Below, one piece after another: positions 312 to 54,362 of a DNA stretch of 64,000 nt; positions within the stretch are counted from its first letter, which is position 1; each line of letters opens with the position of its first letter. A model generated the notes under the pieces. It saw nothing but the letters and a program-made list of their open reading frames with translations, was not told where the DNA came from and searched no databases. Position numbers and translations under genes: made by a program. The stretch is from Pseudomonadota bacterium (lineage in GTDB: Bacteria > Bdellovibrionota > Bdellovibrionia > Bdellovibrionales > Bdellovibrionaceae), in the NCBI GenBank assembly GCA_041178425.1, contig JBEGVH010000026.1, positions 35,427 through 99,426 of the forward strand. Direction: 5' to 3'.

Positions 312-2789
312 TTAATAAGGTTGGTGCTTGCAAAAGGGAGCTTTGGGGTCGCGAGTGCACAAATAAAGGCGCAGATCGGCGTTGTCTTTTTCAAGCCGCT
401 CAATCTTTCGCTGTAGGATTTGTTGCTCTGACAGGATGTTTGTGATCGAAAGTTTGAGGGTCTCCCATTCGGCCTTGATAGATTGAAATTGGGTTTCGAC
501 GACGTTGAATTTACCAACGAGCGCTCGGAAGGCCTCAATCAAGGGGGCAAGAAGGTGAGGGTAAGACACTCGCTTGAGTTGAGTTGTTTCGTCTGTTGTT
601 ACCACTTCAGGAAAGATTTTTTCAACCTCTTGAGCGATCAGGCCAATCTGAGGGCCTTGACCATAGGTTGCGGGGTCTCTCCATAAATAAGATTTGCCAT
701 GCAATTGCAGAATTTTATCGAGAGAATTCTCGAGGGGGTTGATTTGTGTTTTGAGGCGTTCGTCAGATGAAGCCGTACAACCACCGGCGGTACAGATTTG
801 AGCTCCGCCAATACGAAGAGAGCCTTGCGCATTGATGGGGCCAGCCACATCTAATTTATACTGAGGTGTCGGCGTGTCGATGCCTACGTTCCGAGACGTC
901 TGTAGCGCCAAGAGCGGATTGGGCGAATTAGGATTATTAGTTACATCCATAAAAATAGGTCGCTCGAAGGCCTGGATTCGGAGTCGATCATAACTGGCAT
1001 TAGTTTCATAAAAGATGGTGCCTTTGGGAATTAGGCCTTGGGTGATTCCAAGACCAACGCCGCCCGTGCCATTGCCTGCGCGACCTATGCCCACCGACCA
1101 TCCGTTGATTGAAGAAACGAAACCCGGAAAGTTTGTTCCGTCCACTCTTGTTCCCGGAGAGGAGAGATAGTCTCTTGCGGTTTGGAGGTCTCCACTAATC
1201 ACCGTGTTTCTAAATAGGCCTGAATACACACCTCGACCGTTGACGGTGAGCTTGGCTTCGGGGTTAAAGAGTCCGCCCCCAATCCCGACGTTGCCCGTGT
1301 CTCCACGCACGAGCATCGGGGTGCAAAGTTCATAATCAGCACCGCAATTCGTGGTGTTCATGGGGTTTGGTTGATAAATCTGAAAGATTAAATCATTTTT
1401 GTTGTAGGCCTTCAAAACAAGAGCCCCAGGCACTCCCCCTCGCCCAACAACATCTCCCCAATAAACACCACCGAGGGTGGGATTGGGTCGGCCAGCGGGT
1501 GGTTTATCAGTCATAAAAAATAAACCGAATGCATCCGAAGCTCTGCCAAGCCCCATCCATTTTCCATCTTTATAAAATGTAGCGATTCCAACGTTATCCA
1601 TTCCTGCGGGCGACCCTGGTGCACTCAAAAGTTTTGCTATGTGGTCGGGGTGTGCTGAAATAAAAGGGCCTGTGGAGAGCGTCATCTGCGCGCTCTTTTT
1701 AGTTCTTACATAGAGAGCTCCGTCGCATGCTGCTCCATTGTCGGGACACGTATCGACAACGAGGGGGCGTTCACCATAGGTGCGCAAATTAATGGCCCCC
1801 GTAGCAAACCCCATCTGCGTCCATCCAGGCGTTGGATTGGGGTAGGCAATCATCGAGTACATTCCCCGGTTTCTGTAGTTAACAGCCACACCCGCCGCTG
1901 TGCCGCTGGAGTGCTCACCAAGTGCCACGCCTAGTCCGTTTAAGCCGTTGAGGCCACCGATTGTAATTCCATGTCCTAAACTCCATTGGGTTTGCGCTTG
2001 GGCGATCCCATTTTTATCGCCGAGGAACAAAAGATTTTCTCCGTAAATGTTTCCGGTGTTAAAGATGGTTGGCAGTTTAGTCCAATCGCTGGCAACGGCG
2101 AGCCGCAGGTACAAGCATGAGGGAATTTTAGTAGAATCGTATCTTCCACCCAAAAGCTCGCACACTCGTTTCGGATCATTGGTGTCGACAGAACAATCAA
2201 AAAAAGTTCCATCAGCCTTGGTGATAATAGCGAGAGCCACTCGACCTCTCACAACTTTTCCCCCGAGGTTGTCGTCTCCTTGTTTTGTGCCAGTGATCGT
2301 CATTTGAGTGAGGTAGTACTTAAAGTCACCTATGACGCCGTTTTCGTCGGGATACTTAAAATCAATGGGTCCATCTTTTTTGGCTTCTATTTTGGCCGTG
2401 ATAAGGTACTCAGAATTATTGAGCCCCAAAAGCACATTCTTTTTACCCGAATCAACAATCCCGATGTCATTCACTTCAGCGCCTGTGTACTTATCGAGGG
2501 GAATTGTCGCGCTTTGCGGTCGCACGATACTATTTTTGCAGACTCTTTGTTTAGCGGCATTTTCTGCAGCGGTCGGAGGTCTTGCCAAGGTGAGAGAAAC
2601 AAGGTTTTCAACAGCCTGCAAATCGTTACCAATTCGCATGTGTTTTAAACTCTGAAATCCCATGTTCGACATAGAAGCCACGGCATAAAGAATAATCGCC
2701 GAAACACCCACAACCAAGGAGAGCTCAATCAGGCTCACCCCTTTTTGTGACTTAATTCCAAAAAGTTCTTTACGCATATTGACCCTCAT
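312..2789 (-). CDS. Prepilin-type N-terminal domain protein with fibre repeats and C-terminal peptidase S74 (intramolecular chaperone) domain
   Basis: QKG|VSLIELSLVVGVSAIIL class III signal with E+5; GNVGIG..P..KL.V.G fibre repeats; SSDERLK...IGLIAQEVEKIFPEVV S74 motif plus terminal coiled coil; start set at ATG 2789 (GGGAG RBS). Confidence 0.85.
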   Translation of the reverse strand: MRVNMRKELFGIKSQKGVSLIELSLVVGVSAIILYAVASMSNMGFQSLKHMRIGNDLQAVENLVSLTLARPPTAAENAAKQRVCKNSIVRPQSATIPLDKYTGAEVNDIGIVDSGKKNVLLGLNNSEYLITAKIEAKKDGPIDFKYPDENGVIGDFKYYLTQMTITGTKQGDDNLGGKVVRGRVALAIITKADGTFFDCSVDTNDPKRVCELLGGRYDSTKIPSCLYLRLAVASDWTKLPTIFNTGNIYGENLLFLGDKNGIAQAQTQWSLGHGITIGGLNGLNGLGVALGEHSSGTAAGVAVNYRNRGMYSMIAYPNPTPGWTQMGFATGAINLRTYGERPLVVDTCPDNGAACDGALYVRTKKSAQMTLSTGPFISAHPDHIAKLLSAPGSPAGMDNVGIATFYKDGKWMGLGRASDAFGLFFMTDKPPAGRPNPTLGGVYWGDVVGRGGVPGALVLKAYNKNDLIFQIYQPNPMNTTNCGADYELCTPMLVRGDTGNVGIGGGLFNPEAKLTVNGRGVYSGLFRNTVISGDLQTARDYLSSPGTRVDGTNFPGFVSSINGWSVGIGRAGNGTGGVGLGITQGLIPKGTIFYETNASYDRLRIQAFERPIFMDVTNNPNSPNPLLALQTSRNVGIDTPTPQYKLDVAGPINAQGSLRIGGAQICTAGGCTASSDERLKTQINPLENSLDKILQLHGKSYLWRDPATYGQGPQIGLIAQEVEKIFPEVVTTDETTQLKRVSYPHLLAPLIEAFRALVGKFNVVETQFQSIKAEWETLKLSITNILSEQQILQRKIERLEKDNADLRLYLCTRDPKAPFCKHQPY

Positions 2790-2968
2790 GTCTCCCATTG
2801 TTTCATTGAACAATTTGGGAATGGGGGCCGTCTAGATCTAATAATTAATAAGCGATAAGGTTCTCATTTCGAGATGCTTATCTCTTATTAAAAAGTGGCT
2901 AATGCCAAAGTGATAAAAAATTGTTTTTTAGAACCTCAAAATGAGGCACAAAATTCAAAATAGTCTGT

Positions 2969-42685: not shown

Positions 42686-45600
42686 TCACTTTTTCGCTAA
42701 GTCAGTGACTTCCACCATGCGGCCAGTATCGAAAAAGATGTCGTAGCTATTGCAGCCGCTCTTACCGCACTGACGAGGGCCAAAGAATTTCGCCTGGTAC
42801 TTAATCACGTTACCGTTGCTCCATTGTTTGTCGGTGGGAACATCCTGGTACTTAACTCCAATACTCGATACGCTCATTTGGCTCAGCGTTTTGAGCTCGT
42901 GGGGTTCAGATCCACCGTTTTTGTTCATATCAAGCCAAACAAGAAGTTTGCCATAGACGGAATCCTTTTGGTCTATCAGACCATCGTTATTTTCATCGTA
43001 TTGTTTGAGGGCCTCGTAGCCATTAGAGGCTAGTTTTCCATTTTGTAATCGAGTGAATTGGCCAAAGAGCTCTCGGCCATCATCAATCTGACCATTGTGA
43101 TTGAGGTCGAGGCCCAGGAGTCCCCCTTGGTGCCCAGCAATCCAGCCGGTATTGATAGGCTTGCCGTCTCCCATGAGATCAAATTTCACCTCTGAATCTT
43201 GAGGGATTGTTTGAATCATGCCCTTGTTCACAAAGTCGAGAGCGATGGGGCTATAAAGTGTGGTGCGGTAACCGATCGTCGTCCCGACTTGTTCTTTGCC
43301 GCTTCCATCCACGCGAACTGGAGTGACGGTGAAATAGTTTGCCTGTGACCAATTCGTTGATTTCATGCAGCCATCGTAGACCGCGAAGCGATCCATGAGG
43401 TTCGGCAATTGTAGATCGTAGCGGCCTTTGGGAAGAGTCTTGTCGGAGACCGCCGAGAAGATCGTTCTCGCTTGCCTAGGGCTTAAGAGATCAGATTGTG
43501 AGGTAGGTGCTGCCACGTTAGCGACATCAACGGTGTAGTTCGATCCGGCCGCGCAGTTGTTGGCTCCTGCAGAAGAAACCTTAACTCGGTTAAAGGTTCC
43601 CCAGAGTCGCAAGATCATATTGCTCTTGTTGTTTTCAAAGGATCCCACCCGAAAGTTAATCCAACACATGGGGGTCGAAATATATCCCGATCCAGCCCCC
43701 TGAGCGAACACTGGGTCGTTGATTCCGCTACTGCAGCTGGACGAGAACGCCCAGCCATCAGTACTTGCGTTCACTGTCCCGGCTCCAATGTTATAGTAAG
43801 CGAGATTTGGCAAAATATGGCGCACAGCCGTCAACACGGGTGTGTACACCGGGCCAGCCGCCTTAATCAAGGCCGCTTGGATTTCGGCTTGTAAGGACGC
43901 ATCCAAACTCGCCTTGGCAATGTTCACTTTTGCTAAGATGGTTGATCCAGCCACGCGAGTATCAGCACCGGCCGCAAAGGCCACATAAGGGAGCACATTG
44001 CCCATGGTTGTCTTGAGGCCGCTAACATCTTGGTAGTAGGCGGTGAGGTTGGTGTTGATATCTTTAACGGCGCGATTAAATTCCATCTGCCAAGAGTCTT
44101 CTTGGGGGCTTAATGAACGCGCGAGTTCAATAAATCGGTCGTATTTACGGCGAGCATCATCGGCCGAGTATTTATCACGACCAGCGCGAGCCAAAAGCAG
44201 GGCGAGTGAATTGATTTGCTTTAGGAGCTTGTCTTCGGATTCGGAGATTTGAGCATCGCTCACAGCCATAGCTCGTATTTTCATTTCGGCCGACGTAATA
44301 CGGTTTTTTAAACCTTTGAAGTTTATTCGTAAGCTTTCAACCGCTCTTGGCAAAACTAAACTATTTGAAATCGCTGTACGCAAGGAGTTGTTGTTGCTTG
44401 AGTTATCATCGAGCAAGGTGGCTTTAGCCCAGCCGTCGATCGCAGCAATACAAGCAGCCGTAGGGCGAGCTTCCATCCCGTCGTAATCGAGCATATAGGC
44501 TGCGAGTGCTTGTGATAGAATGGCCGAGCCAACCATGTCGGACTGATCGGTCTGACCGGTAAAGAAGATACGGTTGTTACTGTCGGAAGCACTACGCATT
44601 CCACTGAGGAGCATTTTCATGTATGCAATCCCCAAAAGACGGAACGAGTCTCTTCCGATCACGCGCGCAAAAGGTGTTGTTTTTATTTCGCCGCAGGTTG
44701 CACCGACGGCTGCCTTGAGGCTGGCATCAAAGAAAGGGAGTTTATCTTGGTCAGCCAAGCCATTAAGAATAAGAGCTTTCATAAACTCTTCGTCAACATC
44801 TCTGAGCATTAAGGGCATTGAAGCGAGTATATCGATGATCGCGTCACGGTCTTGCATAAAGAGAGCATTGATCTCGTCGCTTGTTTTTTTGTTAAAGCCA
44901 ACAAGCGGAGAGAGTGATACTGGAAAGGCCGTTTCACGAAGATTCACATAACTGGCCTGAATAGCATAGAGCGCCTTGGCCGATTCACTGAGTTCGTCTT
45001 TAAATCCATCATCGGCTCCAGCAATTGAAGCAATCTTTCCACCTAAGGCGTTGGTTATAGCGGTTAGTCGATCTTTAGTTTTATCATCTAACACCGACAA
45101 CTTAGACTCTAAGTCTTGCTTAGTTATGTTGAGTGCTTGGGCGGCGCGAACCTTTTCGTTTTCAAAGTCTGTTCGGAGGGAGCTAATCTGCGAAGCTAGA
45201 TTTGCCTGAACGCCGTTGATCTTTTGATCCAGTTGCGCATCGCGAAGGGCAAGGGCGTATGTGGCCCCAAAGAGACCGCACGCTTTCCAGCTGTCTTCGT
45301 TACACTCGGCAGCAGAAGCAGAAGAGCTAATGTCTCCCACCAGTGACTTAATCATTCCGTCATTCACGCCTTCTGGAGCTTCTAAACAACCGGGGTTACA
45401 CTCTTTTCCACCCCAAATAGCCAAGCCCTGAACTTCTGTTCGTTGATTGAGGAAGTGAATGGCAATGTCTTGGCGAATGTTTATAAGGATGTTTAGTCGT
45501 TCCGATGCCGTCTTACTCGTCCAGCTTCGGCAATTTTGCGGAGCCACAGGCTTACCTGTGTCATCAAGGCATTCACCGCAAAAGGTCGGGTACTTCATGG

Positions 45601-46660
45601 CGCACATCTCATAAAGCACAATTTCTTTATTTTTTGTACAGGCTTCGCTCACGCTGGTGCGGTAGTCGGCAAGAAACTCTTCAAAGGTGGCCTTTTTTTG
45701 GCCTAAGAGAAGTTCAATTCCGTTGCGAGTATCGAGATCTTGATTACACTTCCAGTCGTTGATGGCTGCTTCATAAGAACTTGAACCGGCATTTTTGAGA
45801 GTTGTGAGTTCTTGGTTAATAGAGGCAACCACTCTGTTGTTTTCTTCGGTGTTCTTCGCGACTGAGGCCACGAAAACATCATAGGAGCCCTTGAAGTTGG
45901 CCATGTCGGAGCCCTGTTGTACCACCACGCCATTGAGTTGCTGGTACATATTAATAGCCGACTCCGCAAGTCGGACCCCATAGTCGGCACGTTCTTTGGC
46001 GGCCTTGATGCCAGCTTGCATTTGAGCTTTGTCCGCAATGTATTCTTTAATGTGTTCAGCGAGGGCCAACTTTCCCTGAGCTTCAACAACTTCAAGCTGT
46101 TTATTGGTCAGATCAATATCTTTTTGAAGGAGTTTGTCGGCATTATCTACGTACGCGAGAACTCTTTTTTCGAGAGCGGGAATGACCTCATTGTTAATTC
46201 GATCGACTTGGCCTTGAAGATTCTTAAGGTTGCCGAAGATCACGTCAATTTGACCTTGAAGAACGAGAAAATTAATTCGGTCTCGCATTTTTGAAAGGGA
46301 GTCGACGAGTTTGGTGTAGAGTTTCAATACGTCGTTGGAGTTTGTTGGCATTTGCATTTCGAAGATCAATTGCTTAATCTTTTCAAGTGAGCGAGCCATG
46401 TTGGGGCTGAGTGTGGAGAGATAGGAGTCTCCTGGGTATTCAGCCATCTGCTTGATTCCAGCTTCAGCATCATTGATTGTTTCGAAGATAAAATCTTCGC
46501 TCGTGATTTTTGTGCTGGAAACATCTTTTACGTAGTTGAAGGGCGTTGTGTTATTACAGTTCGTGCCGTAGGCAAAAACGAACGATAGAATGCCCACGTA
46601 GAACACGAGATAATACTTTCTCTTGTAAATGAAATTTATGAACGACTTGAAATCTTTCAT
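42686..46660 (-). CDS. Giant coiled-coil surface protein B with C-terminal FrpC-type self-processing-module-like (Ca-binding) domain
   Basis: AGGGGG RBS before ATG 46660; hydrophobic N-terminus ending AYGTNC; long heptads; YSPIALDF...FDLMGDG..TGW...DLNHNGQIDDGRELFG...GYEAL..YD.N.DG.ID..D...L.VW.D.N.NG.S...EL.TL. Confidence 0.85.
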   Translation of the reverse strand: MKDFKSFINFIYKRKYYLVFYVGILSFVFAYGTNCNNTTPFNYVKDVSSTKITSEDFIFETINDAEAGIKQMAEYPGDSYLSTLSPNMARSLEKIKQLIFEMQMPTNSNDVLKLYTKLVDSLSKMRDRINFLVLQGQIDVIFGNLKNLQGQVDRINNEVIPALEKRVLAYVDNADKLLQKDIDLTNKQLEVVEAQGKLALAEHIKEYIADKAQMQAGIKAAKERADYGVRLAESAINMYQQLNGVVVQQGSDMANFKGSYDVFVASVAKNTEENNRVVASINQELTTLKNAGSSSYEAAINDWKCNQDLDTRNGIELLLGQKKATFEEFLADYRTSVSEACTKNKEIVLYEMCAMKYPTFCGECLDDTGKPVAPQNCRSWTSKTASERLNILINIRQDIAIHFLNQRTEVQGLAIWGGKECNPGCLEAPEGVNDGMIKSLVGDISSSASAAECNEDSWKACGLFGATYALALRDAQLDQKINGVQANLASQISSLRTDFENEKVRAAQALNITKQDLESKLSVLDDKTKDRLTAITNALGGKIASIAGADDGFKDELSESAKALYAIQASYVNLRETAFPVSLSPLVGFNKKTSDEINALFMQDRDAIIDILASMPLMLRDVDEEFMKALILNGLADQDKLPFFDASLKAAVGATCGEIKTTPFARVIGRDSFRLLGIAYMKMLLSGMRSASDSNNRIFFTGQTDQSDMVGSAILSQALAAYMLDYDGMEARPTAACIAAIDGWAKATLLDDNSSNNNSLRTAISNSLVLPRAVESLRINFKGLKNRITSAEMKIRAMAVSDAQISESEDKLLKQINSLALLLARAGRDKYSADDARRKYDRFIELARSLSPQEDSWQMEFNRAVKDINTNLTAYYQDVSGLKTTMGNVLPYVAFAAGADTRVAGSTILAKVNIAKASLDASLQAEIQAALIKAAGPVYTPVLTAVRHILPNLAYYNIGAGTVNASTDGWAFSSSCSSGINDPVFAQGAGSGYISTPMCWINFRVGSFENNKSNMILRLWGTFNRVKVSSAGANNCAAGSNYTVDVANVAAPTSQSDLLSPRQARTIFSAVSDKTLPKGRYDLQLPNLMDRFAVYDGCMKSTNWSQANYFTVTPVRVDGSGKEQVGTTIGYRTTLYSPIALDFVNKGMIQTIPQDSEVKFDLMGDGKPINTGWIAGHQGGLLGLDLNHNGQIDDGRELFGQFTRLQNGKLASNGYEALKQYDENNDGLIDQKDSVYGKLLVWLDMNKNGGSEPHELKTLSQMSVSSIGVKYQDVPTDKQWSNGNVIKYQAKFFGPRQCGKSGCNSYDIFFDTGRMVEVTDLAKK

Positions 46661-46897
46661 GTTTACCCCCTGATAACGGACCTGCAACGTAACCATATCC
46701 TCGCAGGAATGGCTGGTCTCTCTAGTTTATTTGGTTTGCATTGATACCTAAAGTTAATTTGTTTTAGGGCTTCTTTTTGATACATTCGAAATTTAATTTT
46801 GAAACAAGACCTGCCTGAATTTGAACCAATGAAGGCCATTGATGAGCCGAAGTGACGGCCTAGGGAGGTCTTATTATAGTTAATCGTTTAGATCGTC

Positions 46898-48853
46898 TCA
46901 TTCTGGTAGATTGGATGACTGTTTCAATTCTCGCAGTGAATGGTTCTCAGCCTCGAGGGCTTCTAATTTTTGACGGATCAGTTCCAGTTCGATGTGTTGC
47001 TCCTGAGCCAGTTCTTGAGCCTTTTTTATATGAACATTGTGGAGCTCTTTGATGGCATTAATAGCCGCCCAATGAATAGGATCGACATTGAGCTCTAGAT
47101 AACCTCTGGGATTCAGTTGCACGGCCTCGGGAATGACTTTTTGAATTTCTTGAGCATTAAAACCACTGAGCTCAACCTCATGCGGTAGTCCAAGGGAGTT
47201 CTCATTTTTGTAGCGATAATGAATGGGTTGAATCTTTAAAATATCTTCGAGTCCATACCGGAACTCCCCACCGATTTCCTGTAGGCGTTCATCCGATGCG
47301 ATTCTCCATGATGAGCCCGAACTAAGGCCTGCCGAGCCCACGACATGCAAGGTATTTTCTGGGTTGGGAGTGCCAATGCCCACATTTCCTTGGCTGGTGA
47401 TACGAAGCCTTTCTGCCGGGCGTTCGTTTTGGGGTTCTCGTTCACTGGTAGAACCGGTGTTGAAAGTGAGATCCATGGAGGAAGTCGATGTATTTTCTGC
47501 GTCGACAACTCCGGAAATGGAGGCTCCGATTTGGGTTTGTTGATCACCCATCTTACGTCGTATTTTTAGCGCATCGAAAACAGTTTCTTTTCGTTCCTTC
47601 AAGGGAGGGAGCAGGCTTAATAAGGGTGGCGGCAGCTGGAGCTCTTCCACTCTGGCGGGCATTGGTTCCGCGAGGGGCGGTTCGTTGAGTTGGAGGGCCA
47701 CTGCACCGGCCGAGGCGCTGATCTGTGGAAGACTATGGGAATAATCGTGGATGTTATTTTCGTCAGGAGGTTTCACCTCAGTCAGAGCCTGCGGCGGTTG
47801 CGGAGGAACAGGAACAGGTGTTTCTATTGTTGGCGCGCGCAGGAGAGTTGTTTTTGGCTCAAACGGTTCGTCTGGTTCCTGGGGTTTTTCTGCTTCGGTG
47901 ATGGATGGGGCCGAAGCTGTCGTGGGTGCGGGAGCGACAACCGATTTTTCATGTGCCGCCGCAGAAAGGCTCATGATGTGCTCTTTGAGTCTCAAGCCTA
48001 CTGCAGTGAATTGTTGAAAGTCATCGTTTTTTCGAACCTTAAAAGGGCGGTAGTTTCCGCCGATAAGATCGTCGATGTAGCGTTCGAGAGCATAGACCGG
48101 GCCCGCCACGCGATGCGAGATGGATTTGCCAAAAATAAAAAGAGCACCAATAAAAATGGCCGTAACAGCACAGAGACTGAGTACAAAGGGGTAAAGGTAA
48201 CCGTGAAGCATTTCCGTGTCGCCATTGGTAAGCGTACTCAGCGTGACTCGCAGATAGGTATAGGCCAGAATACTCACAATAAGGGCCATACTCAAAGAGG
48301 AGATGGTGAGAATGAAACAATACTTCAGTTGAAACTTTAAATTGATCCAGCGAGTTTTGCGAACGTTGGCATCGGGCCAAAAAACATCAGCGTACTTGAA
48401 GAGGCTCACTAAAATCATTAGATGGCCAATCCATTGCATGAGATCGGCGATATTAAAGACCGGTGTCACTTTGTCTTTGTAGTATTTTATGCTTACAAAA
48501 TCGATGACGGCGCCCCAGGTGATTCGGTCGGCCACATTGCCAATGATTCCACCGATCAATAGAGCTAAGCCAATCCGAAGAATGATGGCGCGTGTGGGGA
48601 GTAAGTATTGGATCACAAAGAAGCTAAAAAAGAGAAAAGCTCCAGCTGTTGATAGCGTTACGATTCGTAGAACATCAGGAAGCTGTTTAAACATTCCAAG
48701 CATGGCGCCAGAGTTGTATTGGAGAGAGAATACAAAAGGCCCGTAGTAATGAATACTTGAATACTTGAGTGCCTCCAACTTGGTGTAGCGATCGACTACC
48801 CAAGTGAGCACAATAGCAAGAATCATCCAAAACCAATCAAGTTTACGAAGCAC
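46898..48853 (-). CDS. Fusion: lipoprotein signal peptidase II (LspA) - 2TM/HAMP-like - Pro-rich linker - fibre repeat - S74 domain
   Basis: NSGAMLG, GGIIGNVADR..GAVIDF, FNIAD LspA motifs; SHRVAGPVYAL..R.NDDF HAMP-like; ERLRITSQGNVGIGT; SDERLQ..GFNAQEIQKVIPEAV; GTG start 48853 with AGGAG. Confidence 0.82.
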   Translation of the reverse strand: MLRKLDWFWMILAIVLTWVVDRYTKLEALKYSSIHYYGPFVFSLQYNSGAMLGMFKQLPDVLRIVTLSTAGAFLFFSFFVIQYLLPTRAIILRIGLALLIGGIIGNVADRITWGAVIDFVSIKYYKDKVTPVFNIADLMQWIGHLMILVSLFKYADVFWPDANVRKTRWINLKFQLKYCFILTISSLSMALIVSILAYTYLRVTLSTLTNGDTEMLHGYLYPFVLSLCAVTAIFIGALFIFGKSISHRVAGPVYALERYIDDLIGGNYRPFKVRKNDDFQQFTAVGLRLKEHIMSLSAAAHEKSVVAPAPTTASAPSITEAEKPQEPDEPFEPKTTLLRAPTIETPVPVPPQPPQALTEVKPPDENNIHDYSHSLPQISASAGAVALQLNEPPLAEPMPARVEELQLPPPLLSLLPPLKERKETVFDALKIRRKMGDQQTQIGASISGVVDAENTSTSSMDLTFNTGSTSEREPQNERPAERLRITSQGNVGIGTPNPENTLHVVGSAGLSSGSSWRIASDERLQEIGGEFRYGLEDILKIQPIHYRYKNENSLGLPHEVELSGFNAQEIQKVIPEAVQLNPRGYLELNVDPIHWAAINAIKELHNVHIKKAQELAQEQHIELELIRQKLEALEAENHSLRELKQSSNLPE

Positions 48854-48873
48854 GCATTTTTCTCCTGCTTTTC

Positions 48874-48901
48874 TTATCGGCGGGAGGTTCAAAAAACTGT
48901 G
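48874..48901 (-). promoter_or_regulatory. Possible sigma28 (FliA) promoter
   Basis: Exact GCCGATAA -10 box 20 nt upstream of the GTG; -35 (CACAGTTT) is a weak match. Confidence 0.35.
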
Positions 48902-48932
48902 GTCCAGGGGAGTAAAGATCTAGACTAAAGCA

Positions 48933-50258
48933 CTACAACTGAAAAGACAATCCGGCTTGAACAGCACCGCTGGCGGAGGCTCGTCCGACGAGCGAAAAAC
49001 CGAGTTTTTCACTGCCAGACCCCGGAAAGAGAAAGCTGAGGCGGAGCTCGGCCCAGGGATCGAGGGTGAACTGTTCTGGTTTTACTTCGATGGTATTGAG
49101 TTCTCTCTTCATGCGAGTGCCAGTGTAGTAATCGAGGACGAGTTTTCGCTCTTTAACGTAAAATTGAAAGTCGGTTCCGACGCTCATATTGAATCGAATC
49201 ATTCTAAAAAAGGTGTAGCCTAGGCCGCCGCTCACAGGAAAAATCAGTTTTTGTTCGACAAAGGGCTTGCTCTCAATGGCGAGCTCGCTGAGATCGACGG
49301 GTGGCAGTGTGTCGATGGGAGTGTTCATGTCGGGACTCCCTGGATTAGGACTATAGAGGTATTTTAATTTAGTTTCGGCATAGAATAACCCGAAGCGAGC
49401 ATTAAAATAAGGGTTGAAGTCATAATTAAAATTCGCACCATAGCGAGCGCCTGAACCTTTTTCGAAAGATCGAATCAAAGGGTCTTCAAGGCCCTGAACG
49501 TCCGAGGAATCGGGAATTTTGGAGACGGCCCCCGAGTAATCGAGGGATGACACACCAGACTCGCCGAGTAAGTCGATTTGAAGGATCCAGGCCGATGGCC
49601 CGTTTCGTCGATTGGCATTGCCAATCTTACATGCCTCGCGTTGTAACTCGGTGGTTGAACCGAGAATCCATCCAAATCCTTCGCCGGCCTCCACTTGGTA
49701 CCAAAGAGTGTTGGTTTTTTTGATCGTTCGGCGCCCAAACCAATTGAGAGAGGCTCCTTTGCCGATTTGGATAATTTTTTTTGAAGCTGAATCGGGTTCT
49801 TCGAAAACAGCGGTTTGAGTCTGTGTTACTGCGCAGAGGGGCTCAGCCGAACAAAGACCCGGAGTTCCAATTTTCACAACGGATTCATTCACTATGTAAT
49901 CACCTTGAACAAGGTGAATCGTAAAGGATCTGTTTTCAAGGTCCTTTGAAACGCTCGGAACAATTCTTCCTTTTTTGATAGGTACACTGGCCGCGCCCAC
50001 GGTTGAAATAGCTTGAACGGTTTGACTTAGAAGCAAACATGTTTTTTCGGGGGCGTTTTCAAAGGCACTTTTTCCGCCGGAACTTGAGTTTTGAATTGGT
50101 TTTGGAGCGCTCGGGCTATTAGCGGCTTCGGGCACAGGGGGCGGACCAGATGGTGCCGCAGGAGTCAGAGTGTCGTCGGCGAAAGACGTCTGCCAAACAC
50201 TCAGTGCAAGGGCAACAGGCATCCAATGGTGAGGAGAAAATAAACGGCTCAATGTCAC
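48933..50258 (-). CDS. Secreted protein with SH3-like domain and C-terminal outer-membrane beta-barrel
   Basis: Signal peptide SFA|D; Pro-rich linker; WYQVEAGEGFGWI SH3b-like motif; alternating beta strands ending GLSFQL. Confidence 0.65.
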   Translation of the reverse strand: MTLSRLFSPHHWMPVALALSVWQTSFADDTLTPAAPSGPPPVPEAANSPSAPKPIQNSSSGGKSAFENAPEKTCLLLSQTVQAISTVGAASVPIKKGRIVPSVSKDLENRSFTIHLVQGDYIVNESVVKIGTPGLCSAEPLCAVTQTQTAVFEEPDSASKKIIQIGKGASLNWFGRRTIKKTNTLWYQVEAGEGFGWILGSTTELQREACKIGNANRRNGPSAWILQIDLLGESGVSSLDYSGAVSKIPDSSDVQGLEDPLIRSFEKGSGARYGANFNYDFNPYFNARFGLFYAETKLKYLYSPNPGSPDMNTPIDTLPPVDLSELAIESKPFVEQKLIFPVSGGLGYTFFRMIRFNMSVGTDFQFYVKERKLVLDYYTGTRMKRELNTIEVKPEQFTLDPWAELRLSFLFPGSGSEKLGFSLVGRASASGAVQAGLSFQL

Positions 50259-50330
50259 TCGATTATTTTGCTCGAGAGATGTCTCATCAGCAATCAGGAA
50301 TCGATGGCCTAGACGAAAGCTCGGAAAAAG

Positions 50331-50363
50331 AAAAACACCAGAGTGGTAATCTCTGGTGTTTTT
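50331..50363. terminator. Intrinsic terminator of giant gene A
   Basis: AAAAACACCAGAG-tggtaat-CTCTGGTGTTTTT. Confidence 0.8.
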
Positions 50364-50411
50364 TCTGGGAACTAAGGTTTAAAGAATCTATTCGGCAGTC
50401 AGTGAAGCGCC

Positions 50412-53400
50412 TTACTGCTTGGCAAGATTTGGTACCTCTACCAGACGACCGGTTTCAAAGAATATATCGTAACTGTTACAGCCTTTTTTGCCACACTGGC
50501 GAGGTCCGAAAAACTTGGCTTGGTATTTAACCATATTGCCATTGTTGATCTGATTCTTTGCAGGCACTTCTTTGTAGTTGACCGCTATTTTTGTTACGTC
50601 CATTTCTGCAAGAGTCTTCATTTCGAAAGGCTCAGAAACACCGTTCACATTGTTATCAAACCAAACCAGCAGATTGTGGTATGCAGGGTCTTTATTATCG
50701 ATGACACCGTCCTTATTAACATCGTATTGAGCGAGAGCCTCGTACCCGTTCTTCGCCAAGCGCCCATTGGGCAATTGAGTGAATTGTCCAAAGAGCTCAC
50801 GGCCATCATCGATGTGACCATTATTATTTAAGTCGATTCCCAAGAAAGCTCCTTGTCGCCCCGAAACCCACCCTGTATGGGTCGGTTGACCATCGCCTGT
50901 GAGGTCAAATTTCACCTCGGAGTCTTGGGCTAAGGTTTCGATCATCCCTTTGTTGACGAAGTCGAGAACGATAGGACTGTAAAGGGTTGAGCGGTAGCCA
51001 ACTGCTGTGCCGAGCACTTCGCCTCCGTTGCCGTCCACTCGCACTGGTGTGACGGTGAAGAAGCTTGCTCGATTCCAGTTAGTTTGCTCCATACAGGCAC
51101 CGCCGTAATAGTAGGCGTCGAACAATTTTGGAACCTGAAGATCATAGCGTCCCTTTGGTCCAGCCGCATCGACTTTCGAAGCGTAAATCATTCTGTGACT
51201 CTGGGGAGATAATAAATCATTTTGAGATGTCGGAGTGGTGACCGTTGCTACATCCAGTCGGTACACAGAATCATTGCTAGCCGCACAATTGTTGGCCCCT
51301 GCTGGTTTGACAATAAAGCGATTGGCGCTACCCCAAACTCTCAGAATCATATTGTGTTTATTGGCTTCCATAGATCCATTTCTCATATTAACCCAACACA
51401 AATAGCTTCCTTGAATGTATCCCGCCGACTTGGATTCACTAAACACCACGTCGTTCATATTACTTGTGCAACTGGAAGCGACGGCGCCAGTGCCGAGGTT
51501 GTATCCTGCGTAATTGGGAAGAATATGTCGGATCGAGGTGACCTCTGGCGTGTAATTAGCCGTTGCCACAGCGGCATTCACCTGAGCCAAAATACTTGCA
51601 TCGAGGGTTGCTTTTGCCGCGTTCACTTTGGCAAGGATTGTCGAACCGGCCACTCTCGAATCGGCGTTGGCAGCGAATGCGACATAGGGAATAATGTTAC
51701 TCATATTAGTTTTCAACGAGGTCACATCTTGATAGTAAGAGGTTAGATTTGTATTTACTTGTCTCAAGGCAGTGTTGAACTCCATTTGCCATGAATCCGT
51801 TTGAGGGCTCAGGCTACGCGCTAACTCTGTGAGGGAATCAAAGCGTCGACGAGCAACATCCGAAGAAAACTTATCCCTTCCGGCTTTTGCTAATAGGAAA
51901 GCGAGTTTGTTGATTTGCGTGGTGAGAGTGGCTTCGGCTTCAGGCACTTGGGTGTCGGATACGGCCATGGCTCGCACTTTCATTTCGATCGCGTTGACCC
52001 GATTTTTTAAGCCATCATAGGAAATTCGTAAAGACTCCACCGCGCGTGGAAGTGTAAGGCTATTCGAAATGGCTGTACGAAGAGCACTGTTATTTGATGA
52101 CGAATTATCGAGAAGTTCCGCTTTGGCCCAGGCATCAATCGCAGACAAACAAGCGGCTGACGGATTGGCCTCAACCGCATCATAACTAAGCATATACGCT
52201 GTAAGGGCCTGGCTCAGAATGGCTGAGCCTACCATATCGGATCGGTCGGTTTGGCCCGAAAAGAAAATGCGATTATTAGAGTCAGAGGTGCTTCGAACAC
52301 CATTGATTAGTTCTTTGATGTAGGCAATCCCTAATAAGCGGAATGAGTCACGACCAATCACCCGATTAAACGGCGATTTGGTAATCGCCCCGCAAGTCGT
52401 TCCCAGAGCTGACGCCATGCTGGCATCAAAGAAAGGAAGATTATTTTGGTCGGCCAAATTGGAAGTGATCAACGCTTTCATGAATTCGCGATCAACATCG
52501 TTCAGTAGTGCCGGCAAGTTGGCGAGGATATCAACAAGGGCATCTCGGTCTTGCATAAAGATCGCATTGATTTCATCGGCCGATTTGGTTTTAAAACCAA
52601 CTAAGGGTGTCAGCGAGGTTGGAAAAGCCGTTTCTCTCAAGCTCACGTAGCTTGCTTGAACAGCGTAGAGTGTTTTTGAGGCGGCGTCTAACTCATCTGC
52701 GAAAGATTGATCGGCACCAGCAATCGAAGTGATCTTGCCTCCGAGAGCATTGGTGATAGCGCCTAGTCGATCCTTGGTTTTATCGTCGAGAGTAGAGATC
52801 TTGGCCTCGAGATCTTGCTTTGTCATATTGAGAGCCTGTGCGGCACGAACTTTTTCGTTTTCAAAGTCGGTTCGCAAAGAGTCGATTTGAGCGGCGAGGT
52901 TCGCTTGGACGCCATTGATCTTTTGGTCTAGTTGAGCATCGCGAAGAGCAAGGGCATAGGTCGCGCCAAAAAGTCCGCAGGCTTTCCAGCTATCTTCCGT
53001 ACAAACCGAAGTAGATCCAGAAGAAGCATTCAGATCTCCAACAAGAGATTTAATCATATTGTCGCTCACACCCTCTGGAGCCTCTAAACAACTGGCGTTA
53101 CAGTCCTTTCCGCCCCAAATGGCTAGGCCCTGAACTTCGGTGCGTTGATTAAGAAAGTGAATCGCAATGTCTTGGCGAAGGTTAATAAGTATATTAAGTC
53201 GTTCCGATGCCGTCTTGTTCATCCAACTCGCACAAGAGTTGGGAGGCACAGGAGTTCCGTTTGCATCCAGACACTCACCGCAGAAGGTGGGGTATTGAAG
53301 GGCACACATATTGTAGAGCATGAGTTCTTTGCTGCGAGTACAAGCTTCGCTCACATTGGTTTGATACGCATTGACGAACTCGTTAAAATTGGCAGCGCGC

Positions 53401-54362
53401 TGACCGAGCATCAGCTCAATACCATTGCGAGTATCGAGGTCTTCGGTACATTTCCAGTCTTTCATAGCGGCATCGTAAGAGCTGTTGCTTGCGTTTTTAA
53501 GTGCGGCCAACTCACCATTGATCGCATTCACAATTTTATTGTTCTCTTCGGTATTTTTTGAAACGGCAGCAACAAAGACGTCGTAAGACCCTTTAAAGCT
53601 CTTCATCTCCGAACCCTGCTGAGCCACAACGCCGTTTAATTGTTGATACATATTGATAGCTGACTCTGCGAGTCTGACCCCATAGTCAGCCCGTTCTTTA
53701 GCGGCTTTAATGTCAGCCTGCATTTGTGTCTTATCAGCCATGTAGTTTTTGATATGATCTGCGAGGGCGGCTTTGCCCTGTGCTTCGACGAGTTCGAGTT
53801 GTTTTCCTGTGAGGTCAATATCTTTTTGGAGCATTTTGTCGGCGTTATCGACATAGGAGATCATTCGTTTCTCAAGGGCTGGAATAACCTCGTTGTTAAT
53901 TCGATCAACCTGACCTTGGAGATTCTTAAGGTTTCCGAAGATCACGTCGATTTGGCCTTGAAGAACGAGAAAATTAATTCGGTCACGCATTTTCGACAGG
54001 GAGTCGACGAGTTTTGTATAGAGTTTTAAAACGTCGTTAGAATTGGTTGGCAGTTGCAAGTCGAAGATGAGGTTTTTAATTTTATCAAGAGAGCGAGCCA
54101 TGTTGGGGCTAAGGGTCGAAAGGTAGCTGTCTCCAGGATACTCAGACATTTGTTTAATCCCGGCTTCTGCATCGTTGATCGTTTCGAAGATGAAGTCTTC
54201 ACTCGCTATTTTTTGACTGCTGATATCTTTTACGTAATTAAAAGGTGTGGTGTTATTACAGTTTGTCCCGTAGGCAAATACAAAGGACAAAATCGCAACG
54301 TAAAAGGTGAGATAGATTCCTCTGGCTTTCGCACGATTGAGCCAATTTTTTAAAAAATTCAT
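50412..54362 (-). CDS. Giant coiled-coil surface protein A, paralog of 42686-46660, with C-terminal self-processing-module-like domain
   Basis: GGAGG RBS; colinear with paralog B over its full length; YSPIVLDF...DLNNNGHIDDGRELFG. Confidence 0.85.
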   Translation of the reverse strand: MNFLKNWLNRAKARGIYLTFYVAILSFVFAYGTNCNNTTPFNYVKDISSQKIASEDFIFETINDAEAGIKQMSEYPGDSYLSTLSPNMARSLDKIKNLIFDLQLPTNSNDVLKLYTKLVDSLSKMRDRINFLVLQGQIDVIFGNLKNLQGQVDRINNEVIPALEKRMISYVDNADKMLQKDIDLTGKQLELVEAQGKAALADHIKNYMADKTQMQADIKAAKERADYGVRLAESAINMYQQLNGVVAQQGSEMKSFKGSYDVFVAAVSKNTEENNKIVNAINGELAALKNASNSSYDAAMKDWKCTEDLDTRNGIELMLGQRAANFNEFVNAYQTNVSEACTRSKELMLYNMCALQYPTFCGECLDANGTPVPPNSCASWMNKTASERLNILINLRQDIAIHFLNQRTEVQGLAIWGGKDCNASCLEAPEGVSDNMIKSLVGDLNASSGSTSVCTEDSWKACGLFGATYALALRDAQLDQKINGVQANLAAQIDSLRTDFENEKVRAAQALNMTKQDLEAKISTLDDKTKDRLGAITNALGGKITSIAGADQSFADELDAASKTLYAVQASYVSLRETAFPTSLTPLVGFKTKSADEINAIFMQDRDALVDILANLPALLNDVDREFMKALITSNLADQNNLPFFDASMASALGTTCGAITKSPFNRVIGRDSFRLLGIAYIKELINGVRSTSDSNNRIFFSGQTDRSDMVGSAILSQALTAYMLSYDAVEANPSAACLSAIDAWAKAELLDNSSSNNSALRTAISNSLTLPRAVESLRISYDGLKNRVNAIEMKVRAMAVSDTQVPEAEATLTTQINKLAFLLAKAGRDKFSSDVARRRFDSLTELARSLSPQTDSWQMEFNTALRQVNTNLTSYYQDVTSLKTNMSNIIPYVAFAANADSRVAGSTILAKVNAAKATLDASILAQVNAAVATANYTPEVTSIRHILPNYAGYNLGTGAVASSCTSNMNDVVFSESKSAGYIQGSYLCWVNMRNGSMEANKHNMILRVWGSANRFIVKPAGANNCAASNDSVYRLDVATVTTPTSQNDLLSPQSHRMIYASKVDAAGPKGRYDLQVPKLFDAYYYGGACMEQTNWNRASFFTVTPVRVDGNGGEVLGTAVGYRSTLYSPIVLDFVNKGMIETLAQDSEVKFDLTGDGQPTHTGWVSGRQGAFLGIDLNNNGHIDDGRELFGQFTQLPNGRLAKNGYEALAQYDVNKDGVIDNKDPAYHNLLVWFDNNVNGVSEPFEMKTLAEMDVTKIAVNYKEVPAKNQINNGNMVKYQAKFFGPRQCGKKGCNSYDIFFETGRLVEVPNLAKQ

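Follow-up and report, generated by a model that had tools for sequence, protein, structure and literature searches.

Two paralogous genes of a bacterium of the family Bdellovibrionaceae raise the question of what becomes of a self-cleaving protein module when its catalytic residue is replaced. These genes, hereafter A and B, lie in a 64,000-nucleotide stretch of DNA (contig JBEGVH010000026.1, positions 35,427 to 99,426 of the forward strand; the window), and an earlier note on this DNA recognised at the C-terminus of both products Neisseria FrpC's self-processing module (SPM), with Tyr-Ser-Pro in place of the scissile Asp-Pro. The parts of the FrpC literature available to us, here and below, describe the SPM as an Asp-Pro device found 'exclusively' in RTX proteins (PMC7078468), in which the Asp414 carboxylate attacks its own carbonyl and the D414A substitution abolishes cleavage (PMC7846742). 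We conclude that the Ser/Thr-Pro SPM is a real, widespread and selected variant of this known module, with an even chance that it performs a new chemistry.

The C-terminal module of the two paralogs

Gene A (42686..46696) is a 1336-aa open reading frame (ORF) on the reverse strand, as are all the genes and gene features given below by window coordinates. Gene B (50412..54362) is a 1316-aa paralog with the same architecture, namely a predicted lipoprotein with a helical body, an immunoglobulin (Ig)-like domain and a Ser-Pro SPM, and the two products are 72% identical (956/1328). The earlier note called them giant; at ~1.3 k aa they are large instead.

A phmmer search with the last 214 aa of A against PDB sequences retrieved the FrpC SPM (6SJW, E 8.4e-28; 6SJX, E 2.5e-27; next match, E 0.006), and Pro1150 of A aligned with Pro415, the first residue of 6SJW. 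The AlphaFold model of residues 940-1336 (mean pLDDT, the predicted local distance difference test score, 80.9) matched 6SJW in Foldseek (E 1.8e-14) and superposed on it with a VIA Z score of 22.6 and a root-mean-square deviation of 2.0 A over 161 aligned residues (next Z 7.2). Every motif named in the earlier note was present, so its identification of a FrpC-type module stands by both alignment and structural comparison. Local Pfam and NCBIfam scans gave no SPM match on A or B, and PF26745 is annotated on A, B and all 28 matches of one homologue search. Sequence and model together indicate that A and B end in a true FrpC-fold SPM.

Among the FrpC residues mapped by Kuban et al. (PMC7078468), the three EF-hand-like loops (D462-E474, D499-D511, D521-E532) and the W451/W519 pair are kept in the alignment of A. 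The module of A and B retains G477, G491 and D579, and has Gln at D478 and Asn at H490. The fourth Ca2+ site (Ca site 1: D419/D421/D423 with D456) is lost, D419 alone being kept and Val, Lys and Gly occupying the other positions. The position of Asp414 is taken by Ser1149 in A (43250..43252, codon AGC) and Ser1129 in B (50976..50978, codon AGT), each followed by 187 residues; the ~190-aa segments delimited in the earlier note begin exactly at these codons. The SPM of A (42686..43249) runs from Pro1150 to the end and contains the three EF-hand-like loops, the W1185/W1254 pair, the port residues F1211, G1212, N1225, G1226 and D1319, and a clade-specific C1310/C1315 pair, and the SPM of B (50412..50975) is 70% identical to it. 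Asp1319 (42740..42742), the equivalent of D579, may be the partner of the Ser hydroxyl or act as its general base. Two contigs of sequencing run X2, which may be a source of this DNA, span both Ser codons, with one difference elsewhere in each.

The residue before the proline across the family

All searches were seeded with a Ser protein, which inflates the Ser ratios, and the genome loci are the best-ranked part of the matches in two genome surveys. The module was matched in 21,640 protein clusters (50% identity, E<=0.001). Of the genomes sampled from the phylum of the window, 83 of 251 contained it (14/14 in genus g10), as did 76 of 401 sampled from the phylum of a Duganella genome. A pooled set of 403 unique domains was obtained after leaving out F476-less domains (mostly decayed RTX-tail copies), those with an unplaceable Pro, six near-duplicates and locus L035. 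The residue before Pro in this set was Ser in 244 modules, Asp in 107, Thr in 33, Pro in 9, Cys, Glu and Gly in 2 each, and Tyr and His in 1 each, two modules having no Pro. Neither Asn nor Ala preceded the Pro in any of the 403 modules; in the fetched proteins, these residues precede 6.9% and 12.4% of all prolines, respectively.

The individual samples differed in composition. Among the best 150 matches, the 93 single-module proteins without RTX repeats comprised 91 with Ser-Pro, one with Asp-Pro and one truncated, and in the 57 multi-module proteins (162 modules) the residue was free and 28 modules lacked the Pro. A metagenome/viral sample, selected by an internal motif of which the scissile site is not part, gave 62 Ser-Pro, 16 Thr-Pro, 12 Asp-Pro and 2 Cys-Pro among 92 scorable modules (4 unscorable). 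Further genome loci supplied 49 Bdellovibrionota domains (Ser-Pro 44, Asp-Pro 1, no Pro 1, unscorable 3) and 90 Pseudomonadota domains (Asp-Pro 70, Ser-Pro 8, Thr-Pro 8, Gly-Pro 1, no Pro 1, unscorable 2). The rarity of Ser-Pro implied by the earlier note did not survive this survey, since Ser-Pro was found in 44 of the 46 scorable extra Bdellovibrionota domains and Ser-Pro or Thr-Pro in 16 of the 88 scorable Pseudomonadota domains. Judged from these sequences, Ser/Thr-Pro modules are common and widespread rather than a local quirk. They also occupy the FrpC slot, with a short N-terminal domain, then the SPM, then RTX repeats (L070, L083, L087, L090, L097, L100, L120, L121, P0170 and P0172).

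Within the window's clade, the Ser changes once (to Asp) in 96 rows of a tree of length 48, in which the median column changes 27.5 times. The same position changes 36 times in the 117 rows of the decayed RTX-tail copies (tree length 41.7), and loop 476-478, which forms part of the port, is deleted in 117 of 144 such copies. These patterns indicate that the Ser is under strong selection and that the SPM fold does not itself need it. The Ser codons are AGY in the window and in the Oligoflexales loci and TCN in the own-family loci, and a FastTree tree gave 18 swaps between Ser and Thr and 17 changes between Asp and Ser/Thr. Several columns were better conserved in Ser/Thr than in Asp modules (F476, 0.99 vs 0.73; G477, 0.99 vs 0.39; G491, 0.98 vs 0.72; D579, 0.97 vs 0.19; position 582, 0.90 vs 0.41), and those that clearly differ are port residues of Kuban et al. 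(PMC7078468) or their neighbours. Selection is thus strong on the surroundings of the site as well as on its hydroxyl. Asp579 is present in 269 of 271 Ser/Thr modules versus 20 of 107 Asp modules, 61 of which have Glu. A covariation between D414 and D478, first seen in P0022, was rejected, as D478 occurs in 23 of the 107 Asp modules and the pair test was not significant.

The survey also yielded several distinct groups of modules. P0022, a full-length family member with Trp-Asp-Pro and D478, nests among Ser rows near A and B; together with P0161, a protein of the same family with Tyr-Ser-Pro, it forms a natural pair for comparing the two chemistries. L119 and L122 have Cys-Pro SPMs with Glu at position 579. 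In L114, L120, L121, L083 and L070, an RTX tail follows the SPM, and the N-terminal domains ahead of it resemble enzymes or toxins (lysozyme-like and M23-like by eye); small exported-protein genes often lie upstream, in a layout reminiscent of polymorphic toxins and their immunity genes. The module bodies of the Asp-Pro and Ser-Pro copies in L114 are nearly identical. Giant repeat proteins with a Ser/Thr-Pro SPM at the end were found in L050-L058, L079, L093 and L103, L050 adjoining flagellar flg genes (by eye). Many small Ser-Pro proteins (L014-L045, L135-L161, L057-L059, L088) share a conserved Cys that lies 2-6 residues ahead of the Ser and may anchor the chain where it enters the port. P0004, P0026, P0043 and similar proteins are RTX giants of 3000-7000 aa ending in three or four tandem decayed SPM copies from which the port loop has been lost, and such copies are an undescribed non-cleaving use of the fold. 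Many of the Pseudomonadota Asp-Pro modules, such as those of L184, L188, L228 and L233, have a Gly before the Asp and a shortened port loop; Gly before Asp nearly blocks FrpC cleavage (PMC7846742).

Possible activities of the Ser-Pro junction

The aspartic-anhydride chemistry of FrpC is excluded for A and B, because Ser cannot attack its own carbonyl as the Asp414 carboxylate does. Our best reading, Ca2+-triggered autocleavage through the Ser hydroxyl by an N-to-O acyl shift at Tyr|Ser, is founded on the restriction to Ser/Thr/Cys/Asp, the lack of Asn, the tightness of the port and the architectural slot shared with FrpC; in our judgment this proposal is as apt to be right as wrong. Ser, Thr and Cys are the nucleophile set of acyl shifts, and the N-to-O shift through a five-membered ring is used by SEA, GAIN and intein domains. 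The module would fold on meeting Ca2+ outside the cytoplasm and, by analogy with FrpC, this folding would thread the chain through the narrow port. Asp1319 would activate Ser1149, which would attack the Tyr1148 carbonyl via a five-membered ring. Hydrolysis of the resulting Tyr ester would free the 188-residue module, much as S74 chaperones are shed from fibres, and what stayed behind, a lipid-anchored stalk with an Ig-like head, would be the mature surface protein; alternatively, the ester might be trapped by an amine. Trp and Tyr, the latter being the residue before the Ser in A and B, give the fastest FrpC cleavage when placed before Asp-Pro (PMC7846742).

Several points weigh against an acyl shift. 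Cleavage of any Ser/Thr module was neither demonstrated here nor found in the literature. Ser, Thr and Asp are also the residues that commonly form turns and caps, and they might do no more than hydrogen-bond to D579. Correcting for kinship leaves no significant coupling between Ser/Thr and D579 (median p 0.5-1 over 6 and 8 independent pairs). The Ser seed inflates the Ser count of the samples, Asp-Pro dominates among the Pseudomonadota (70/88 scorable), and the two Cys rows are a single event in an E579 background. In the model, strands flank Ser-Pro on either side, and A and B both have Gln in place of D478 and are without Ca site 1. Copies that evidently do not cleave (Pro-Pro, Ala-Pro or no Pro) abound, which means that the fold also has uses other than chemical ones. 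In FrpC, moreover, D414A is inactive (PMC7846742) and strain falls on bond 414-415 (PMC7078468); for an acyl shift, it would have to fall on the bond before.

The best surviving alternative, which we regard as a real possibility although not the probable one, is that the module serves as a cap or adhesive head that folds with Ca2+ and does not cleave. The hydroxyl would be buried in the port, hydrogen-bonded to D579 or aiding a fifth Ca2+, and would lock the module to the preceding domain, Asp-Pro self-cleavage having been repeatedly derived from this inert form. A hydrogen bond would fit the near-invariance of D579 beside Ser/Thr and its relaxation beside Asp; many modules are unable to use either chemistry, cleavage at the C-terminus would free nothing except the module, the strands are continuous in the model, and the FrpC chemistry requires a carboxylate (PMC7846742). 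However, Asn, a good turn residue one base away from AGY and GAY codons, is absent from the 403 modules, the constraint on the Ser equals that on core residues even though other copies of the fold do without it, and Ser/Thr replace Asp between an N-terminal domain and an RTX tail, where release makes sense. Between the two branches proposed in the earlier note, a non-cleaving Ca-folding domain or a new chemistry, the homologue survey favors a selected hydroxyl, and so the chemical branch, over a decayed site, but a structural hydrogen bond could account for much of the pattern.

A wider version of the acyl-shift proposal, which we think unlikely as a whole, gives the SPM fold a second widespread chemistry: Ca2+ would trigger an acyl shift at Ser/Thr/Cys, and the upstream domain would be left with an activated ester. 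Lipid-anchored stalks and pilus-tip proteins of Bdellovibrionota would thereby become able to form covalent bonds with amines of prey or partner surfaces, as an all-in-one FrpD-FrpC, and Asp-Pro clip-and-link would be the repeatedly derived variant. The covalent attachment of A and B to prey, suggested in the earlier note, is speculation, and the analysis turned up no evidence of it.

Cleavage at the FrpC position itself, Ser|Pro, is a still more doubtful alternative, in which Ca2+ and strain would twist the amide for attack by water or an outside nucleophile, the Ser just fitting or orienting the bond. The 17 interchanges between Asp and Ser/Thr would suit this mechanism; against it, D478 is not kept and a Ser hydroxyl attacking its own carbonyl would have to form a four-membered ring. 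The twisted-amide geometry put forward for FrpC (PMC7078468) might survive, given that Pro415, the Trp pair, G477, G491 and D579 are all retained, but D414A is inactive in FrpC, so strain alone is insufficient there (PMC7846742). Finally, the Ser might be a neutral loss-of-function substitution in two decaying paralogs, in which D478 and Ca site 1 are likewise altered, but its retention in 95 of the 96 clade rows, in all three modules of the genome and across phyla largely refutes this, and we consider it highly improbable.

We found nothing in the literature on Ser/Thr-Pro SPMs in a search outside which lay the supplements and the two primary FrpC papers, which may hold D414 substitutions or homologue alignments; SPM homologues are listed in Fig. 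S1 of PMC12538545, a source available in part. The SPM family is far larger than the literature picture, and a big part of it carries a selected Ser/Thr. If these modules cleave, a fold already in use for ligation (NeissLock) would gain a new autoprotease chemistry switched by Ca2+, and with it potentially a C-terminal ester that needs no added Asp. They would also provide a molecular handle on prey holding by Bdellovibrio-like predators, since related Ser modules head operons reported to be attack-phase and predation-linked (PMC12034629, also available in part). If they do not cleave, the annotation would be corrected and many 'FrpC-like' proteins would be inert Ca2+ caps.

Architecture, genomic context and known systems

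The probable start of A is Met13 (46660), upstream of which there is a purine-rich run resembling a ribosome-binding site. The N-termini of A and B are of the lipoprotein type, a basic region being followed by a hydrophobic stretch and then a Cys, as recognised by sequence and alignment rather than by a signal-peptide predictor. The predicted lipidated residues are Cys47 of A (46556..46558), behind the hydrophobic stretch and aligned with the QNC lipobox-like Cys of full-length homologues, and Cys35 of B (54258-54260). A lipobox regular expression matched 36 of 55 long single-module homologues, several of the misses being truncated or QNC types. A and B are thus predicted from sequence to be membrane-anchored lipoproteins, with lipidation of the Cys probable, as the earlier note had supposed in proposing lipoprotein-type export; its statement that RTX repeats are absent also holds, no GGxGxD nonapeptide being found in A or B.

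The helical body of A (43847..46555) was modelled with low confidence (mean pLDDT 61) as long amphipathic helices at ~121-247 and ~474-559, a Cys-rich insert at ~317-473 and a helical bundle at ~563-910. The earlier note envisaged a long surface fibre; a body of long helices plus a bundle, as modelled, need not be a straight fibre. The body model had no Foldseek match in PDB at E<=0.001, and residues 300-860 had no usable match in the ESM Atlas. A word search with the N-terminal 1135 aa returned only A and B, and 60 related genomes gave no match; homologues of this part are nevertheless present among the SPM-matched proteins. The body is followed by an Ig/FN3-like beta-sandwich in the AlphaFold model (43253..43837, residues ~954-1148; Z 5.7-7.2 to many Ig/FN3 domains, a common fold only), the last strand of which leads straight into Tyr-Ser-Pro; the corresponding domain of B (50979..51545, residues ~940-1128) was assigned by alignment to A. 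Sequencing run X3 contains a strain variant with 63 differences in mid gene A (window 44512-45916), adjoining contigs differing by 2-20, which suggests recombination or a hypervariable segment.

The GC content at third codon positions is 0.48-0.52 in A and B versus 0.41-0.42 in two housekeeping genes, and in local matches their SPMs are 42-53% identical to those of Oligoflexales loci versus 29-49% to own-family copies. Horizontal transfer of A and B was considered. Two genes separate A from B. The first (46898..48892) encodes a 664-aa protein in which a Pro-rich linker joins a signal peptidase II (LspA)-like domain to a C-terminal Peptidase_S74 chaperone domain, and two S74-less paralogs of its N-terminal half are present in the same genome (contigs C7 and C10 of G000). 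The second (48933..50258) encodes a 441-aa SH3 and probable outer-membrane beta-barrel protein (SH3_3 below the cut-off; look-alike clusters with SH3_3 and OMP_b-brl, score 0.95). Neither protein had a tblastn match at E<=0.01 in nine homologous loci, giving no conserved neighbour gene. PF13884 (Peptidase_S74) did not match A or B, whereas two neighbours match it. An 833-aa protein encoded elsewhere in the window (312-2813) has a weak prepilin-type N-terminus and ends in an S74 domain, like Bdellovibrio fibre adhesins.

The third SPM of the genome is divergent and also Ser-Pro; it ends a ~330-aa ORF (G000:C6:263639-264643, reverse strand) with a Cys five residues ahead of the Ser and a small lipoprotein-like ORF upstream. 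Window DNA was found in freshwater and lagoon runs, with no RNA run among those listed. We infer a predatory life for the host at the level of the family it shares with another genome, G013, which has a protein cluster under the name Bdellovibrio and in which two operons (L043:4161-9878 and L044:5952-11374) each encode a Ser-Pro SPM protein, two minor-pilin-like proteins and a 900-1000-aa pilin-like protein (415/334/146/1003 and 380/321/163/931 aa). In addition, L274:2599-4509 encodes a 636-aa protein in which a pilin-like N-terminus is fused to a Ser-Pro SPM.

The G013 operons share gene order and similar sizes with Bdellovibrio Bd2209('frpC')-2212 and Bd2723-2726 (414/328/153/995 and 384/325/162/901 aa), attack-phase operons with transposon-defined predation phenotypes; the available part of the source contains no discussion of the SPM module (PMC12034629). 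The small non-pilin protein of the G013 operons ends in a Ser-Pro SPM, and from layout and label, without sequence comparison, these SPM proteins are probably orthologous to Bd2209 and Bd2723. A role in prey contact is therefore plausible for this class of SPM, since Ser-Pro SPM operons match attack-phase operons in order and size. A and B belong to another clade, and the G013 SPM proteins are ~400 aa long and lack the helical body.

A and B resemble FrpC in sequence, fold, the three EF-hand-like loops, W451/W519, P415, G477, G491, D579 and the Tyr two residues before Pro. They differ from it in having Ser for Asp414, Gln for D478, Asn for H490, an extra Cys pair and no Ca site 1. Their SPM is C-terminal and without RTX repeats, and a lipoprotein signal stands in place of type I secretion. 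The fragment released from FrpC is held by the separate lipoprotein FrpD (PMC7078468), whereas in A and B the N-terminal part is itself the predicted lipoprotein. The scissile Asp-Pro of clip-and-link RTX proteins (FrpC/ApxIVA) is absent from A and B, which have Ser-Pro instead; of the other residues of that site, D579 is kept and D478, Gln here, varies among Asp-Pro modules as well (present in 23 of 107).

The Peptidase_S74 chaperones of trimeric fibres, present in the same genome, are likewise C-terminal modules that start at a conserved Ser and are shed after folding; no sequence or fold relation to the SPM was found, and the analogy is one of role only. The Ser/Thr modules have in common with acyl-shift autoproteases (SEA, GAIN/GPS, Nup98, Hint/intein and Ntn hydrolases) the pattern of an invariant Ser/Thr/Cys where two domains meet, preceded by a variable residue, and would also share the ester intermediate proposed here. 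None of the autoprotease folds was among the structure matches listed for the model of A 940-1336. The SPM differs from them in fold, in its Ca2+-folding trigger, in the obligatory Pro after the nucleophile and in Asp as an alternative state, its acyl-shift chemistry being a proposal.

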